Source: Shigella phage SH7. From it: a stretch of DNA of 64,000 nt. This document shows, piece by piece, positions 15,840 through 61,952 of this stretch; the stretch's first letter is position 1; each line of letters opens with the position of its first letter. Both the position numbers and the translations under genes were made by a program. The notes below the pieces were generated by a model. The model was not told the DNA's origin and did not search any database. It worked only from the letters and a program-made list of their open reading frames with translations. The stretch lies in the sequence record KX828711. The stretch is one strand, 5' to 3'.

Positions 15840-15843
15840 CAAT

Positions 15844-15861
15844 GGGGACCGAAAGGTCCCC
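15844..15861 (+). terminator. Rho-independent terminator after gene 54
   Basis: GGGGACC-GAAA-GGTCCCC hairpin followed by ATATTTTTATTT. Confidence 0.75.
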
Positions 15862-15867
15862 ATATTT

Positions 15868-16158
15868 TTATTTACGGAATGAAATAAAGGCAGCAACTGA
15901 AGCAACAGAGGTTTCTTCAATATAAACCTCAATTTTTACCGGAGCTTCTGACTCAAATTTACCTGTTACTACACCTTGGAAAATACTTTCAGTCTGTTCT
16001 GGCTTTGAAAAATTTTCAGAAGGAAAAATTCCAAACTTTTTATCGGTTCCGAAAATTTTAATAAATTCATCGTAAACTGCTTCATTAAAAGCATTATCAG
16101 CAGGAATAACGCCTTCAACTACAAGTTCTTGACCTAAAAAGCGCAAAGAAGATTTCAT
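15868..16158 (-). CDS. Hypothetical protein downstream of the alt genes
   Basis: 96 aa ORF behind a strong early promoter and an AGGA ribosome-binding site. Confidence 0.6.
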   Translation of the reverse strand: MKSSLRFLGQELVVEGVIPADNAFNEAVYDEFIKIFGTDKKFGIFPSENFSKPEQTESIFQGVVTGKFESEAPVKIEVYIEETSVASVAAFISFRK

Positions 16159-16165
16159 TTTGTGT

Positions 16166-16219
16166 TCCTCATGTTATGTCAGTAAGACTACTATAACACA
16201 ACACGAGGGACTTGTAAAC
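16166..16219. repeat. 54 bp direct repeat, copy 1 (early promoter plus leader; copy 2 at 31935-31988)
   Basis: 53 of 54 nt identical to 31935-31988. Confidence 0.85.
16190..16219 (-). promoter_or_regulatory. Early promoter for the 96 aa ORF
   Basis: Minus strand GTTTAC then 18 nt then TATAGT, followed by an AGGA RBS and ATG. Confidence 0.65.
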
Positions 16220-18276
16220 TACATTTTGAACTTTTTAGACATTCCGTTAATGTTAACCAAAGAAGCTAAGATTTGAGAAACTTCGTTTTCCTCTTCTTTT
16301 GATTCTTCTACAAGGAATTGATTAAATCCAGCCATTGGACGAACTTCACCAGTTTCCATTAGATGGTCGCCATCATATACTGATTCTTCTAATTGTTCAG
16401 AAGGAGGAACGATTGTACCTTCGATTAGATACTTGTTATAAGCAGTTTCTTTCATAAAGTAAGTACTTACTTTATTAATCTTCAGTAAAATTCCACGTGG
16501 TAGAATAACTTCAGCTTCTGATGGAAATCCTGATAAATGACCCGGAACGATAACTTTAACTCGTTCAGCTCCTTTAATTACCATACCCACGCTAGTTTCA
16601 GCATCTTCATTAGCATATGTAGAATGACTACCCATATGCATCAAATCTTCTGCATCAACGGAACCTTCTCCTTCACCAGAAAATACTGCTCCGGAATCAT
16701 CTAAGGCCATATAATTTTTACCATACTCACCAAAGATATTTGGTTTAAGTGATGTAGATACGAAGTTCTTGAAATAGAACATTTTATTTTCAATGTTATG
16801 ACGCAAAGTTTTAAAAGTAACTTCTTGTCCACGGTAAAGTGTAGTTCCTGGAGGAAGAACTGAACCTTTAGCAAACGCAGAATCCATAGTCTCGATGTGC
16901 TTAATAGCGCGCTCCATGTATTCTTCACGTGTAGAATCAGGTTTACCTAAAAGGAATGAGTTCATTTCAACATACGAATCTGCACAATAATCTTCAATTA
17001 CATCAGATTCAGCCTGAGTCAATCCTTTTGGAGTTACTTCAGTGCTTGCATATTCATACGCCTGAGCAGCGGATTCATCAATTAATTTATAAATGCCATT
17101 CATGACAAATTGAATAATAGCTGTCTTTTCATCTGGCGTAGCTTTAGAACCTTTAACTAAATCATTGACAATTTTCTTAATAACATCAAAGCTATTAGAA
17201 ATATTAATGTCAGCAAGATCGCTTAAAATTTTATCAGTTTTATAATCAAAAAATTCTTTATTCTTTAAATATTCTTGAGAACTTTGATATGTTATATCGC
17301 TCTGCAACTTGATAGATGGATCACGTAAACGTGCATGGGCTAATGCAATATGACTTCGGAAGCTTTCTAGTTCATAATCACTAGATTTAAAACGAGAAGC
17401 ACTCCTCATATCACCGATAGCTCCTTTGCCGAAGTTTGAACCAATCTGAATAACGCCAGAGTTCATTGGTCCTTCTGCTTTATATACCGGAACTTTAGAT
17501 TCAAACTCTTGATATTTCTTAGCAGCAAAGCTATCACCCTGAAGTGAAGCATCAACAGTAGAATATTGAGCTTGTGCTGCTAATCGACGACTAATTTTAG
17601 TTTTCTGAATAACAGCTTGATCCGTACGCTTATCATTTTCTAAAGCAATAGAAGCAGCAACTGCGACAGCTTTAGGAACAGCATTACCTGTTTTAACGTC
17701 TACATAAACATCACCGACTTTCGATTCAACTTTTGTGAATAACTCAGTTGAAATAGGAGGTACACCTGGAATGTCTTCTAAATTGGCATTTTTACGGTAA
17801 ACCATAATATATGCATATTTCTTATCATAGTCCCAGATTTCCTTTAAAAGAACATATCGACCTGCTCCTTTAGTACGTACTAAACGGTCAGCAATAACTT
17901 GCATTTGACGAGCAGCGCCATTTGTTTTACTTTTTAGTACGCGGAATAGGCATGCATCAATTTTATACTGTTTCATTGTTTGAAGAGCAGTATCAAAAAC
18001 AGCATTAATGACGCCAATTGGATTTCCACCCAAGTTTTTAAGCTTAACTAATGATAATTTTTCATTAACACCTATCATTACGATATGCATCATTTTGTCG
18101 CCTGGCTTAACGTTTTTATTCGTATCACCGCCAGAGGTGTATGTACAAAATCTAAATCCAGGAAGCACGCTTTCTTCACCGGCTTGAATAGCAAAAATTT
18201 GTGGTATTTTATGCTTAGGATTTAAGTTAACAACCGGCGCCGAAGCGCCGTCAAATAATTCTGTAATAAGTTCCAT
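16219..18276 (-). CDS. Alt-family ADP-ribosyltransferase paralog
   Basis: 685 aa; shares MELITELFD... N-terminus and conserved blocks with the adjacent alt product; ExE-type motif SEAEVILPRG; central region diverged. Confidence 0.8.
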   Translation of the reverse strand: MELITELFDGASAPVVNLNPKHKIPQIFAIQAGEESVLPGFRFCTYTSGGDTNKNVKPGDKMMHIVMIGVNEKLSLVKLKNLGGNPIGVINAVFDTALQTMKQYKIDACLFRVLKSKTNGAARQMQVIADRLVRTKGAGRYVLLKEIWDYDKKYAYIMVYRKNANLEDIPGVPPISTELFTKVESKVGDVYVDVKTGNAVPKAVAVAASIALENDKRTDQAVIQKTKISRRLAAQAQYSTVDASLQGDSFAAKKYQEFESKVPVYKAEGPMNSGVIQIGSNFGKGAIGDMRSASRFKSSDYELESFRSHIALAHARLRDPSIKLQSDITYQSSQEYLKNKEFFDYKTDKILSDLADINISNSFDVIKKIVNDLVKGSKATPDEKTAIIQFVMNGIYKLIDESAAQAYEYASTEVTPKGLTQAESDVIEDYCADSYVEMNSFLLGKPDSTREEYMERAIKHIETMDSAFAKGSVLPPGTTLYRGQEVTFKTLRHNIENKMFYFKNFVSTSLKPNIFGEYGKNYMALDDSGAVFSGEGEGSVDAEDLMHMGSHSTYANEDAETSVGMVIKGAERVKVIVPGHLSGFPSEAEVILPRGILLKINKVSTYFMKETAYNKYLIEGTIVPPSEQLEESVYDGDHLMETGEVRPMAGFNQFLVEESKEEENEVSQILASLVNINGMSKKFKM

Positions 18277-18279
18277 GAT

Positions 18280-20340
18280 TTATCCTTGAACGAACTTGTA
18301 AGGCATGTTTGTAATATCTATGCAAGACGCAATAATTCCAAGAGATGATTCTACTTTCTGTTTAACATTTGATGAAACAAATGATGCAAAGTCAACTCTG
18401 TCTTCTATTTCAATATCACCTGTCATTGCAACCAATTCACCAGTTTCCATTAGACGGTCACCGTCATAAATGACTGATTCGGTGAGTTCTTCCGTAGTCA
18501 TAACTTCAGCTTGAATAAGCTTGTTGTTAGTTTTGACTGTTCCATCATTGTAAGATGCATCAGTTATTTTATTAACTTTGACCATTAATCCACGTGGCAA
18601 AATGACTTCCATTTCATTTGAAGGCGCTAAACTTCCGCCTGGTAAAACAACATTGACTTTATCAGCCCCAGTAATAACCCATCCAATTCCGACTAAATTA
18701 TCGCTAGAATTAACAAGCCCTTCATCATTTTTATCGATAGAAATGTTTAGACGCTTTTCATCTGGTAAAACACCAACAGCTGAATCAGTCATCCAAGTAC
18801 CAAAAATGTTTGGATATAATGATGTTGATACAAAATTTCTAAAATAAAAAACTCGATTTTTTACCAATGCTTCATATATTGAAGGTAACATTCGCTGTGA
18901 ACGATATAAAGTAATACCCTTTGGCAATCGATCACCATTTTTAAAGGCTGAATCTAAATTATCGATGGCTTGTTCTATTTCAGGTGCTGTTAAAATACTT
19001 GTACGCTCATCTGGATTATATAATCCCAAAAGAGCATTATTCATGTCTACATATCCTGAACCTACATATTCACGAATTCCGCGTTTTTGCGCTGGCGTGT
19101 ATTTAGATGAATCTTTATTTTCGACTATAGAATGCAATGACCATCCAACAGTAAGAGCATATCCACGTAATTCTCTTCGAATAATCTTTGTTTTTATTGC
19201 ATTCCAAGAATTTTGCACTAACTCATTATTCGCAGTGTCTTGATTTAAATGCGAATGCTTGTTAATATTTCTTTCTAACCAAGCACCTTTATATTTTTCT
19301 AAAGTATCATCGACTATAGAAGCAATAGTTTCTAAAGTTTTTATTGAAGTAATAGATTCTTTTCGTAATCTTTCTAAAGCTTTATTTTTTATTTCTGTAT
19401 TAACATCAGATTCTTTATCTTCAGGAATTATAGAAGCTTCTCTGAATGCCATTCCAGCTGTAACACTATTAAGAGCATTCTCTAATGCAAATCCTGAAGT
19501 AGAAATAACAGTTAATTCATTAGCATCAGAAATTAAAGGAGCGTCAGCGGGTTTATTTAATTCTGCTGCTGAAGCCTCAAATTTTTGAAACATCGGCGTT
19601 TCAAATCTAGAAGATTCCAACGACTGACTTTGTGCAATTGCTCTACGGGAAATTTTAACTTTAACGATTACAGCTTGGTCAGAACGTTTATCATTTTCTT
19701 GTGCAATAGATGCTGCAATTGCCTCATTTTTAGTTACTTGGGCTCCAGTATCTTTATTGATATAAACATCACCGACCTTCGATTCAACTTTAGTAAAGAG
19801 CTCGGTACTAATTTCCGGAACTCCTGGAATGTCTTCTAGTGATACATTTTTGCGATGTATAAGAATATATGCATACTTTTTATCATAATCCCAGAGTTCC
19901 TTAAGAAGGACGTATCTGCCACCTGAACGACTACGGATAAGTCTATCAGCAATAACTTGAATTTGTCGAGCTTGGCCAGCAGTTTTAGACTTAAGAATAC
20001 GAAGCATACAAGCATCAATTTTATACTGACGCATCGTTTGCATTGCAACAGTAAAAACTGAATTGATATAATTAATTGGGCTTGGACCAAGACCTTTTAA
20101 TTTAGCAATTGAACCTTTAGCAGTTAATGTAAAAGGAACAATATGCATCATTTTATCGCCCATTTTTAAATCGCGATTAGTATCACCTCCAGATGTATAG
20201 GTACATAAACGAAAGCCTGGTTGTTCAATTGCGTCATCGACATGAACTGAAAAAATTTGTGGTATCTTCTTCTTTGGATTTAAGTTTGTAATCGGAAGAG
20301 TAGTATCTTCGTCAAATAATTCTGTAATAAGTTCCATCAT
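18280..20340 (-). CDS. alt: Alt ADP-ribosyltransferase (virion-packaged)
   Basis: 686 aa (T4 Alt 682 aa); MELITELFDEDTTLPITNL N-terminus; NEMEVILPRG ExE motif; immediately downstream of gene 30 with own late promoter. Confidence 0.85.
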   Translation of the reverse strand: MMELITELFDEDTTLPITNLNPKKKIPQIFSVHVDDAIEQPGFRLCTYTSGGDTNRDLKMGDKMMHIVPFTLTAKGSIAKLKGLGPSPINYINSVFTVAMQTMRQYKIDACMLRILKSKTAGQARQIQVIADRLIRSRSGGRYVLLKELWDYDKKYAYILIHRKNVSLEDIPGVPEISTELFTKVESKVGDVYINKDTGAQVTKNEAIAASIAQENDKRSDQAVIVKVKISRRAIAQSQSLESSRFETPMFQKFEASAAELNKPADAPLISDANELTVISTSGFALENALNSVTAGMAFREASIIPEDKESDVNTEIKNKALERLRKESITSIKTLETIASIVDDTLEKYKGAWLERNINKHSHLNQDTANNELVQNSWNAIKTKIIRRELRGYALTVGWSLHSIVENKDSSKYTPAQKRGIREYVGSGYVDMNNALLGLYNPDERTSILTAPEIEQAIDNLDSAFKNGDRLPKGITLYRSQRMLPSIYEALVKNRVFYFRNFVSTSLYPNIFGTWMTDSAVGVLPDEKRLNISIDKNDEGLVNSSDNLVGIGWVITGADKVNVVLPGGSLAPSNEMEVILPRGLMVKVNKITDASYNDGTVKTNNKLIQAEVMTTEELTESVIYDGDRLMETGELVAMTGDIEIEDRVDFASFVSSNVKQKVESSLGIIASCIDITNMPYKFVQG

Positions 20341-24752: not shown

Positions 24753-25085
24753 TTATTTTACTACTTTCCAATGCTTCATATCAAGTTTACCAACTTTTTT
24801 CATCTTCTCAATTAAGCGTTCGGCACGTTGGCGAGCTGTAACATAATACCATTCACCTAATTCATTTTGTTCAATTTTTCCAACGATTACTGTATTCAAT
24901 TCATAAATCCAACCAGTAAAGAAATTATGAACTTGAATTGTAAAGGTGAAATCTGTTCCCATACCTTCTGTTGTTTCTACTTCAATAATATCACCTTCAA
25001 CTGCCATTAAGAACCACATAGTTTCATCATATTTACCAGTGAAGCATTTAGTTTTAACTGCAGCGTTCAGATTAATCGTTTTCAT
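24753..25085 (-). CDS. Hypothetical protein (30.x cluster)
   Basis: 110 aa ORF. Confidence 0.6.
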   Translation of the reverse strand: MKTINLNAAVKTKCFTGKYDETMWFLMAVEGDIIEVETTEGMGTDFTFTIQVHNFFTGWIYELNTVIVGKIEQNELGEWYYVTARQRAERLIEKMKKVGKLDMKHWKVVK

Positions 25086-25112
25086 TTTATTCTCCTTTGT
25101 TTGTGTAAGATA

Positions 25113-25142
25113 ATACTATCACAAAGGAACCATACTGTAAAC
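25113..25142 (-). promoter_or_regulatory. Early promoter for the 110 aa ORF
   Basis: Minus strand GTTTAC then 18 nt then TAGTAT. Confidence 0.5.
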
Positions 25143-31083: not shown

Positions 31084-31433
31084 TTAGAAAGGTCCTGGAT
31101 GTCTTCTGCGAACTTGTTGAAGGAGTTGTTGATTTGTTTTTCAACCAATCCTGGCTTATGAGCCACCACATCCGCCTTCTTTGCGTCTTTGCGCAGCTTT
31201 TCATTTTCACGCTCAATAGCAGCAATTGCCTCACGATTTTTAGTATTCATCGCATCAATATAATTATACTGAATTCGCAAATTATTTAATGCTAAAGCGT
31301 TTTCATTGGCCGTTTTTGTAATTTCTACAACAGACGTTTCTAATCTTTCTACCTTATTTTTTAAAATAATAGATGTTCCGCCCAATGCTATTACAATTAA
31401 TAGCAAACCTGCTGTCGTATTACTTAATTGCAT
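31080..31433 (-). CDS. pseT.3: Inner-membrane spanin (i-spanin)
   Basis: 117 aa; N-terminal transmembrane helix (GLLLIVIALGGTSIIL) then coiled-coil-like periplasmic domain; paired with the lipoprotein. Confidence 0.7.
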   Translation of the reverse strand: MQLSNTTAGLLLIVIALGGTSIILKNKVERLETSVVEITKTANENALALNNLRIQYNYIDAMNTKNREAIAAIERENEKLRKDAKKADVVAHKPGLVEKQINNSFNKFAEDIQDLSK

Positions 31434-31930
31434 AAAGTTTTAATAACCTCTACAATATCGTCTTGAGAAAGACCGTTAATTAAAATATGATGTTCAGCCG
31501 GAGATTTAGAAATTTTAAAGCATGCCTCAACATCTTCTGCCATATCCGATGCGCTACGATTTGGATTACTAATTCCAAGGCGGTGTTTTCCCGTCAAAGG
31601 ATTAACAATAATGTAGCATTTACAGCTATTGATATGAACATTAGGCTGAGTCTGATTAATGAATACTTCACAATCGTATTTCGCAAGCTGATTTTCTAAA
31701 AAGACTTTCATCTCCTCAACTGCATCAGGAAGCATATCACGGGCTTGCTCAAGACGACGATTTCGATATTCTTTAATGGTCGTTTTCCGCTTGACTTGCT
31801 TTGCTAAATCTTTCTTAAGATCAGTGATATATCCAACTCGACGATTTCCTTTGAATACAGAAATCCCATCTGTAGTATCACCGTATGCTTCAACGACCAT
31901 TTCAGTAGTAATAAGCTGTAAATCCATCAT
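31424..31930 (-). CDS. alc: Alc transcription terminator / host transcription unfolding protein
   Basis: 168 aa (T4 Alc 167 aa); upstream of the spanins and downstream of rnlA; strong early promoter. Confidence 0.8.
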   Translation of the reverse strand: MMDLQLITTEMVVEAYGDTTDGISVFKGNRRVGYITDLKKDLAKQVKRKTTIKEYRNRRLEQARDMLPDAVEEMKVFLENQLAKYDCEVFINQTQPNVHINSCKCYIIVNPLTGKHRLGISNPNRSASDMAEDVEACFKISKSPAEHHILINGLSQDDIVEVIKTLCN

Positions 31931-31934
31931 AAAG

Positions 31935-31988
31935 TCCTCATGTTATGTCAGTAAGACTACTATAACACAACATGAGGGACTTGTAAAC
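31935..31988. repeat. 54 bp direct repeat, copy 2 (early promoter plus leader of alc)
   Basis: 53 of 54 nt identical to 16166-16219. Confidence 0.85.
31959..31988 (-). promoter_or_regulatory. Early promoter for alc
   Basis: Minus strand GTTTAC then 18 nt then TATAGT, followed by an AGGA RBS. Confidence 0.65.
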
Positions 31989-31991
31989 AGC

Positions 31992-33579
<1,588 letters not shown>

Positions 33580-40894: not shown

Positions 40895-41260
40895 CTACTT
40901 TTTGAAAGTTTTTCGCAAAATTTCAATGATTTCATCTACATTGTTTTCGTCAACAATGCAGTGAATTTTCGTTACGCCAGAAACCTTGTCTTTAACTTCA
41001 TCTTCTTCAGAAGTTGGTTCTTTATACTCACGAAAACAATGAAATTCATCTTCGCAGACGTTAAAGTAAAAATGCTTTCCATTTGCGCATTCAATGTGTT
41101 TTATTACTTTAAATCCGTCAGCAAAGAAAGATTCTTTAACTTCAAACCATCCGCCATTTTCTTGAATAATTTTAACTATTGATGAATTAGAACGTGGGCG
41201 ATAACTAATAAATGTATCAATAAGTCTTGGAACAAGCTCATACTTTTTGCCATTATACAT
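40895..41260 (-). CDS. Hypothetical protein
   Basis: 121 aa ORF between the frd.x ORFs and gene 32. Confidence 0.6.
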   Translation of the reverse strand: MYNGKKYELVPRLIDTFISYRPRSNSSIVKIIQENGGWFEVKESFFADGFKVIKHIECANGKHFYFNVCEDEFHCFREYKEPTSEEDEVKDKVSGVTKIHCIVDENNVDEIIEILRKTFKK

Positions 41261-58269: not shown

Positions 58270-58299
58270 ATAGTACCACAGTATGCTTTGGTTGTAAAC
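58270..58299 (-). promoter_or_regulatory. Early promoter for motA (terminator-plus-promoter cassette)
   Basis: Minus strand GTTTAC then 18 nt then TACTAT with the conserved upstream TTTTTCACAAAAC element. Confidence 0.6.
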
Positions 58300-61922: not shown

Positions 61923-61952
61923 ATAGTACCACGGTCCTTGTGGTATGTAAAC
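61923..61952 (-). promoter_or_regulatory. Early promoter (third copy of the conserved promoter cassette)
   Basis: Minus strand GTTTAC then 18 nt then TACTAT, near-identical over about 60 nt to the promoters at 41576-41605 and 58270-58299. Confidence 0.6.

Follow-up and report, generated by a model that had tools for sequence, protein, structure and literature searches.

Two copies of a 54-nt module were identified upstream of alt.-3 and alc in a 64,000-nt stretch of Shigella phage SH7 (KX828711), which is referred to here as the window. Each copy is interpreted as an early cassette of the promoter-early stem-loop (PeSL) kind in which translation would be switched according to where the transcript originates. 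Based on RNA folding and comparative analysis, we assign this reading a probability of roughly 55%. The repeat as it was first described is ordinary for T4 biology. The new part is a conserved pairing between the promoter spacer and the Shine-Dalgarno (SD) sequence, formed by an 18-bp hairpin that joins the spacer to the ribosome binding site and that the original prediction had overlooked. The coordinates of the features are listed in Table 1.

Table 1. Module copies, their elements and the adjoining genes in the window.
Feature	Position	Strand	Details
Copy A, 54-nt module (promoter, hairpin and SD)	16166..16219	-	upstream of alt.-3; exact pattern match, 0/100 shuffles
Copy B, 54-nt module	31935..31988	-	upstream of alc; differs from copy A at position 16 only (A for G)
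Copy A, sigma-70 early promoter	16190..16218	-	TTTACA 16218-16213, 17-nt spacer, TG, TATAGT 16195-16190; putative start ~16183
Copy B, sigma-70 early promoter	31959..31987	-	TTTACA 31987-31982, 17-nt spacer, TG, TATAGT 31964-31959; putative start ~31952
Copy A, predicted hairpin	16167..16208	-	5' arm 16208-16189, loop 16188-16185, 3' arm 16184-16167, SD GAGG 16170-16167
Copy B, predicted hairpin	31936..31977	-	5' arm 31977-31958, loop 31957-31954, 3' arm 31953-31936, SD GAGG 31939-31936
alt.-3, 96 aa, DUF5498	15868..16158	-	gene served by copy A
alc, 168 aa, inhibitor of host transcription	31424..31930	-	gene served by copy B
Alt paralog alt.-2, 685 aa	16219..18276	-	TAG stop shares its G with GTTTAC of copy A; putative source of read-through
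rnlA ORF (RNA ligase 1)	31992..33152	-	stop 3 nt before copy B; putative source of read-through

Sequence and extent of the repeat

The minus strand of copy A (16219-16166) reads GTTTACAAGTCCCTCGTGTTGTGTTATAGTAGTCTTACTGACATAACATGAGGA. On this strand both copies share GTTTACAAGTCCCTC[G/A]TGTTGTGTTATAGTAGTCTTACTGACATAACATGAGGA; 53 of 54 positions are identical, the sole change in copy B (31988-31935) being G to A at element position 16. When up to three mismatches were allowed, only these two sites were found in the window, and no match to the 54-nt pattern arose in 100 dinucleotide-preserving shuffles. The 54-bp direct repeat with a single mismatch that had been proposed for this DNA was thereby borne out, as was its gene context, with upstream stops at 16219 and 31992 and with alt.-3 and alc located downstream.

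The copies are direct repeats at a distance of 15,769 bp. The limits of the shared identity are sharp: it opens at the G of GTTTAC and closes at GAGGA, and the flanks are unrelated. The distance between GAGGA and the ATG is 7 nt at alt.-3 and 4 nt at alc. A comparison of the Alt.-3 and Alc proteins revealed no similarity, so that the repeat stops short of the coding regions. The true start of rnlA is probably internal to the maximal ORF.

In the neighborhood of copy A, two full-length Alt ADP-ribosyltransferase paralogs of 685 and 686 aa are arranged in tandem (16219-20340, minus strand). Of the second Alt paralog, T4 retains only the remnants alt.-1 and alt.-2, and an old duplication is noted in the T4 record. 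A GC-rich, bidirectional terminator-like hairpin (ATGGGGACC gaaa GGTCCCCAT; 15842-15863) is located between the convergent genes alt.-3 and 54 and has a T-run on the plus strand.

Age and distribution of the pair

The window belongs to Tequatrovirus; the 2.5 kb around copy A share 99% identity with Shigella phage Sf23 and 96-99% with hundreds of T4-like phages. Phage T4 possesses both copies, which differ there at one position as well, although at another place (A at position 40 of the alt.-3 copy). A megablast search for the 54-mer, as had been suggested for the relatives of this phage, detected it at 738 places in 447 phage records, and a more sensitive search identified two places in nearly every one of ~500 Tequatrovirus records. 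Since the pair is present in T4 and in nearly all of these records, it predates the radiation of the genus, and judged by this distribution the repeat is an old, genus-wide feature.

The recent duplication suggested in the original prediction was therefore rejected, together with an assembly artefact. A neutral segmental duplication or artefact without function would account for the high identity of the copies and for nothing beyond it. Its probability is practically negligible, as both copies occur in T4 and ~500 independent genomes, the limits of the repeat coincide exactly with the -35 hexamer and the SD, and the architecture is kept across genera.

Matches of 54 nt to the T4-type module (96-98%) were also obtained in GenBank records MG010123.1 (Staphylococcus phage SAJK-IND; 31824-31877) and PQ561419.1. 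Contamination or a chimeric assembly is the most likely origin of the module in the Staphylococcus phage record.

Promoter elements

A scan with the sigma-70 consensus yielded 10 of 12 matches and an extended -10 TG at each copy, in agreement with the early promoter and leader modules that had been proposed for alt.-3 and alc. The elements were originally given as GTTTAC, 18 nt and TATAGT; the site is the same and was refined to TTTACA, a 17-nt spacer and the extended -10. As in T4-type early promoters, both copies have GTTTAC/TTTACA as the -35 element, a spacer of ~17 nt and, in the -10 hexamer, A as the second and T as the sixth base. The transcription start would be the A located seven nucleotides past TATAGT, at element position 37. 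In T4 the putative starts of the two copies correspond to coordinates ~136,301 and ~123,058.

Upstream of the -35 hexamer lies coding sequence that is not common to both copies. In a check for UP elements it was found to be A-rich at copy A (aaaaagttcaaaatgta) and less so at copy B. The late promoter TATAAATA is absent from both copies. A literature search for 5'-end mapping, ribosome occupancy or reporter results returned none for either site.

Predicted masking of the Shine-Dalgarno sequence

The helix predicted at each copy comprises 18 bp, with element positions 12-25 paired to 40-53 (14 bp) and 28-31 paired to 36-39 (4 bp), a 2-nt bulge and a 4-nt loop. The 5' arm (positions 12-31) consists of the promoter spacer and the -10 hexamer, and the SD GAGG terminates the 3' arm. 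In an 86-nt context, copy A folds with -23.3 kcal/mol (z = -4.1; 0 of 200 shuffles as stable) and copy B with -27.7 kcal/mol (z = -4.0). The only difference between the copies in the window, G16A, replaces a G.U pair by an A-U pair.

Partition-function folding gave a probability of 0.00 for an unpaired SD at both copies if the RNA enters from upstream. For RNA initiated at the promoter, the respective values were 0.75 (alt.-3) and 0.51 (alc). RNA begun at the putative start of the nested promoter would lack the 5' arm, and its SD is therefore predicted to be free.

A scan for intrinsic terminators called none at the two copies, and a T-run follows neither stem; an intrinsic terminator at these sites was rejected for these reasons. 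Cleavage by RegB, which would involve GGAG, was rejected for Tequatrovirus because the SD is GAGGA and GGAG is absent.

Ten pairs of early promoter and gene start were checked in the window. The SD pairs with the spacer of its own promoter only at alc, at alt.-3 and at a 30.8-like ORF, and the remaining promoter hairpins end ahead of the SD.

The 30.8-like ORF (24753-25085) is preceded by a third early promoter (25083-25142, minus strand; TTTACA-N17-TAGTAT), whose spacer sequence TCCTTTG complements the SD CAAAGGA of its own gene. The probability of an unpaired SD at this site is 0.04 on the long RNA compared to 0.99 on promoter-initiated RNA. The covariance model of the alc leader described below also matches this site, which has a T4 counterpart (L002:12252-12310). 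Other early promoters on the minus strand (40895-40866, 28685-28656 and 24750-24722) carry perfect or near-perfect inverted repeats across the -10, e.g., AGGCTATAGTA..TACTATAGCCT. The 3' arms of these three hairpins finish before the SD, which is the typical PeSL architecture.

The alc leader across T4-like phages

Homologues of Alc were found in more than 1,100 phage records. For the analysis of the leader, rnlA-alc spacers were taken from GenBank phages of eight further genera and from 40 IMG/VR loci found by means of an Alc alignment. A shared layout was recognized in ~28 of the 37 distinct spacers and in ~13 lineage groups, including Tequatro-, Karam-, Moon-, Gelderland-, Jiaoda-, Roskilde-, Braga-, Dhaka- and Winklervirus. 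In this layout, (G)TTTAC adjoins the rnlA stop and is followed directly in the spacer by an anti-SD sequence (ATCTCC, ATCCTC or AATCCC). The -10 hexamer lies in the apical hairpin, and the 3' arm finishes in the alc SD (GGAG, GAGG or GGGG). In the minimum-energy folds of all ~28 spacers the four SD bases pair with spacer bases, a degree of conservation that is inflated by the other constraints on the SD and the -10. The lineages are related by descent and do not represent independent trials. The probability of an unpaired SD in these spacers is ~0.00 on long RNA compared to 0.4-0.9 on promoter-initiated RNA.

The inner stems vary by lineage (CGTTT/AAACG, CATCAG/CTGATG, TCATTTT/AAAATGA, CCCC/GGGG and others), and the SD/anti-SD pair itself co-varies (CTCC/GGAG, CCTC/GAGG and CCCC/GGGG). 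Alignment of 27 alc leaders with MAFFT followed by RNAalifold gave no consensus structure, since 3' arms of differing lengths were out of register. A gap-free alignment of a subgroup and a covariance model were used in its place. In the gap-free alignment of 10 sequences, 95% of the cells pair compared to 38-48% with slid partners, and four pairs are altered on both sides. The covariation amounts to 0.197 compared to 0.094 for shuffles, with 0 of 500 reaching the observed value. The covariance model built from this alignment recovers both Tequatrovirus copies with 23-25 bits. In a model-based alignment of 29 distinct sense-strand alc rows, which is fitted to the modelled structure and thus leans towards it, 94.7% of 437 cells pair (36-50% if slid) and compensatory changes occur at 10 of 16 pairs (1-5 if slid).

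Several lineages lack this masking at alc, which is therefore dispensable. It is weak or absent in Mosigvirus, and no SD masking was found in the folds of L082 and Acinetobacter phage Ac42. In Kanagawavirus and in the loci L064/L081 the hairpin spans the -10 and ends short of the SD, and in Gaprivervirus a GC-rich terminator precedes a local SD hairpin that is separate from it. Also in Gaprivervirus (L020/L021/L024/L055; VR20/VR25), the tblastn match to Alc spans ~740 nt compared to ~500 nt, and SP18 annotates 'alca' with two places, which suggests an insertion or a split or duplicated alc.

The hairpin could act on transcription or RNA stability instead, attenuating or terminating transcripts from upstream or protecting the 3' ends of processed rnlA and alt messages, so that the overlap with the SD would be incidental. 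This is the role proposed for PeSL stem-loops, and Arbiol et al. (PMC2839356) reported that the stem-loop of an RB49 PeSL cut downstream lacZ about as much as rrnB T1. Hairpins that span the -10 without reaching the SD, namely those at 40895, 28685 and 24750 and those at alc in Kanagawavirus and L064/L081, indicate that an SD-independent function exists for hairpins of this sort. At the two copies, however, the stems lack a T-run and the terminator scan was empty. Moreover, a role in transcription or stability explains neither the coincidence of the helix 3' end with the SD at alc in ~13 lineages nor the covariation of SD and anti-SD. This explanation is considered fairly unlikely, and masking of the SD is the preferred reading of the hairpin.

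Probable origin of the alt.-3 copy and possible exchange between the copies

In Gapriver-, Dhaka-, Moon- and Kanagawavirus and in a Klebsiella phage, the early promoter located in the spacer between alt and alt.-3 is of a different type. The alt.-3 module of these five lineages has a short spacer hairpin (CCACAAGGAxGTGG) and an unmasked SD; it resembles a second promoter family located at 61952, 58299 and 41605 of the window and also the Mosigvirus module at alc and alt.-3. Since the five other sampled lineages carry a different module upstream of alt.-3, the alc-type module at this locus is Tequatrovirus-specific and was probably copied from alc in this genus. Copying from alc to the alt.-3 site is the simplest reading of this distribution and is the direction that we infer; cassettes appear to have been swapped between sites in other lineages too.

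The second family (61952, 58299 and 41605, minus strand) consists of near-identical early promoter modules of ~55 nt with the sequence tttcacaaaacRGTTTACAWACCAMARG.AC.GTGGTACTATacaactatc. At 58299 and 41605, the SD pairs on the long RNA with a U-rich sequence upstream of the -35. In Mosigvirus JK36 (L010; 20045-20106 and 33408-33468), the promoters of alc and alt.-3 are alike (GTTTACAAACAC..GGATG..TGATACTAT..ATCAACAACAYGAGGA). This module is not that of Tequatrovirus, and its presence at both loci points to concerted evolution or to cassette replacement.

Copies A and B were compared within each of 12 Tequatrovirus genomes that contain both; they differ at 0-6 of 54 positions and are thus not strictly homogenised. 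The 14-bp lower stem hardly varies, most of the changes being located in the loop, the bulge or the upper stem. The variants T11, A16, A32 and T34 were each seen at both loci. Each of the two-site haplotypes (T11 with A16 and A32 with T34) is carried at locus A by some genomes and at locus B by others, which suggests occasional ectopic exchange between the copies in this small sample of 12 genomes; pattern scans for variant copies yielded seven stretches each in IMG/VR and in the metagenome collection. Conversion, which the original prediction had offered besides duplication, is supported in part by the shared haplotypes and by the differing alt.-3 module elsewhere.

The inverted repeat could also function as DNA, either by modulating the promoter as a cruciform or a protein-binding palindrome or as a recombination hot spot for the shuffling of cassettes, in which case the RNA fold would be a by-product. 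Besides the haplotypes common to loci A and B, which suggest exchange, the description of PeSLs as recombination points in PMC2839356 and PMC4122927 is in line with this. So are the folding energies of the two strands, which are about equal outside Tequatrovirus (sense more stable in 8 of 19). The helices there are almost all Watson-Crick, so that both strands fold about equally well and structure alone is no proof of a role of the sense RNA. However, only the pairing and not the stem sequence is kept between genera. In Tequatrovirus the stems contain 2-3 G.U pairs, which the opposite strand would show as C-A mismatches, and folding of the sense strand is favored by 5-6 kcal/mol. We know of no candidate protein that binds the palindrome. 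Taken together, a function at the DNA level is very unlikely, and a role of the hairpin in the sense RNA is preferred.

As direct repeats flanking alt, gene 30, cd and pseT, the copies had also been regarded as substrates for deletion or duplication by homologous recombination. This arrangement is correct, and the segment between them holds alc, pseT, cd, 31, rIII, 30.x, 30, alt and the alt paralog. Viable products are not expected, however, because essential genes would be lost. From established T4 genetics, genes 30 (DNA ligase) and 31 (co-chaperonin) are essential, and a duplication of 15.8 kb exceeds the headful margin and the terminal redundancy of T4. Recombination products would thus be transient and visible by PCR, and would not be recovered as viable phage. 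For nearby cassettes, PeSL-mediated recombination and circles have been demonstrated (PMC2839356).

Proposed switch by transcript origin

Mapped T4 middle promoters lie upstream of both sites, PnrdA, PnrdB and PI-TevIII upstream of rnlA-alc and, on the same strand, P30 and P30.2 upstream of alt..alt.-3 (PMC2988021). As no terminator was predicted at either junction, read-through RNA is expected at both. RNA polymerase that initiates further upstream, at early or middle promoters ahead of nrdA/nrdB/rnlA or of gene 30/alt, would copy both arms of the hairpin. In the resulting read-through RNA the hairpin would form and bury the SD of alc or alt.-3, and the gene would be poorly translated unless the helix is opened. 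RNA from the nested promoter would start ~7 nt past TATAGT, within the loop or 3' arm, and would lack the 5' arm, leaving the SD free. Translation of alc and alt.-3 would in this way depend on transcription from their own early promoter during the first minutes after infection. The design would be ancestral at alc; in Tequatrovirus, the alc module would have replaced the alt.-3 module, with occasional exchange later on.

The stop codon of the upstream gene is located 0-3 nt before the -35, and a terminating ribosome might open the base of the helix, which would result in coupling and not in silencing. According to such a translational coupling, the SD of alc or alt.-3 would be exposed whenever a ribosome finishing rnlA or alt.-2 melts the helix base, and the output would be proportional to that of the upstream gene. 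In nearly all lineages the stop is directly adjacent to the -35 or overlaps with it (TAGTTTAC), and in most genera the 5' arm is only ~7 nt past the stop, the SD/anti-SD pairs forming the helix base. The close spacing of stop and -35 could, however, merely be due to genome compaction. In Tequatrovirus the 5' arm begins 11-14 nt past the stop, which is probably beyond the reach of a terminating ribosome as judged from general ribosome footprints. Coupling is therefore regarded as quite unlikely, and the switch by transcript origin remains the preferred reading.

If the module works as predicted, this would explain why conservation extends over 54 bases as one block, far beyond the need of a promoter. 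It would further account for the way in which expression of a gene embedded in a long transcription unit can be restricted to the first minutes after infection, and for the way in which such a timing module can be passed to another gene as a cassette. It would also set a limit for engineering: altering the spacer or removing the upstream terminator context would change the translation as well as the transcription of alc, the gene for the shut-off of host transcription.

Comparison with known systems

The promoters of both copies correspond to the early promoters of T4, described as the 'uber' UP/-35/TGn/-10 class (Nolan et al., 2006, PMC1524935; Hinton, 2010, PMC2988021). They share GTTTAC at -36 to -31, the extended -10 TG, the A at position 2 and the T at position 6 of the -10 and the location upstream of early genes. 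The consensus of this class covers ~15 of the 54 shared bases, whereas the remaining identity comprises the hairpin arms and the leader.

In T4-type phages, PeSLs were described as cassettes (Arbiol et al., 2010, PMC2839356; Comeau et al., 2014, PMC4122927), for the T4/PST pair with the consensus TTTACW-N17-TAYWAT. Both copies belong to this class: they combine a promoter with a stem-loop, have the SD and start codon at the 3' end of the intergenic region and constitute a repeated motif. As in PeSLs, a sigma-70-like early promoter in an intergenic region has a stem-loop between the -35 and -10 or across the -10 and is followed by an SD and a start codon. Dispersion of the repeats within one genome is likewise in common, and the recombination between copies in which PeSLs are implicated may also take place here. 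In contrast to the PeSLs, the copies in the window flank 15.8 kb of partly essential genes and not a dispensable ORFan. The stem-loop of PeSLs was read as a terminator or attenuator, whereas the 3' arm found here includes the SD and a T-run is absent. The text of PMC2839356 nowhere mentions translation, ribosomes or sequestration.

A hairpin is also present at mobE of Aeromonas phage Aeh1 (Gibb and Edgell, cited in PMC3014915). As far as that citation describes it, mobE is a homing-endonuclease gene and, different from alc and alt.-3, has no nested early promoter.

In mechanism, the proposed switch mirrors that of e, soc, 49 and I-TevI of T4. Long RNAs initiated upstream of these genes fold the SD or AUG into a helix and are silent, and a late promoter inside the DNA encoding the hairpin gives rise to a translatable RNA (PMC3014915). 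By prediction, alc and alt.-3 likewise have the SD in a stable helix and a nested promoter whose RNA would lack the 5' strand. The late internal promoter (TATAAATA) of e, soc, 49 and I-TevI delays translation, whereas the early sigma-70 promoter found here would confine it to the earliest period. Furthermore, the mechanism of those four genes is experimentally proven, while the masking at alc and alt.-3 is known by prediction. The review PMC3014915 lists neither alc nor any early-promoter case. As the internal promoter is early and not late, the two copies were classified as working like this group and not as members of it.

On this comparison we tentatively propose an early-promoter counterpart of the T4 late-gene hairpin switch. 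By means of an anti-SD in the promoter spacer, alc, the Tequatrovirus alt.-3 and possibly 30.8 may be translatable only from their own immediate-early RNA, and may be silent or dependent on coupling on the abundant middle and late read-through RNA; the module would be portable and would have been copied from alc to alt.-3. If true, T4-like phages would possess a general means to give a gene inside a long operon a strict immediate-early window of translation, the reverse in timing of the delay that the late promoters impose on e, soc, 49 and I-TevI.
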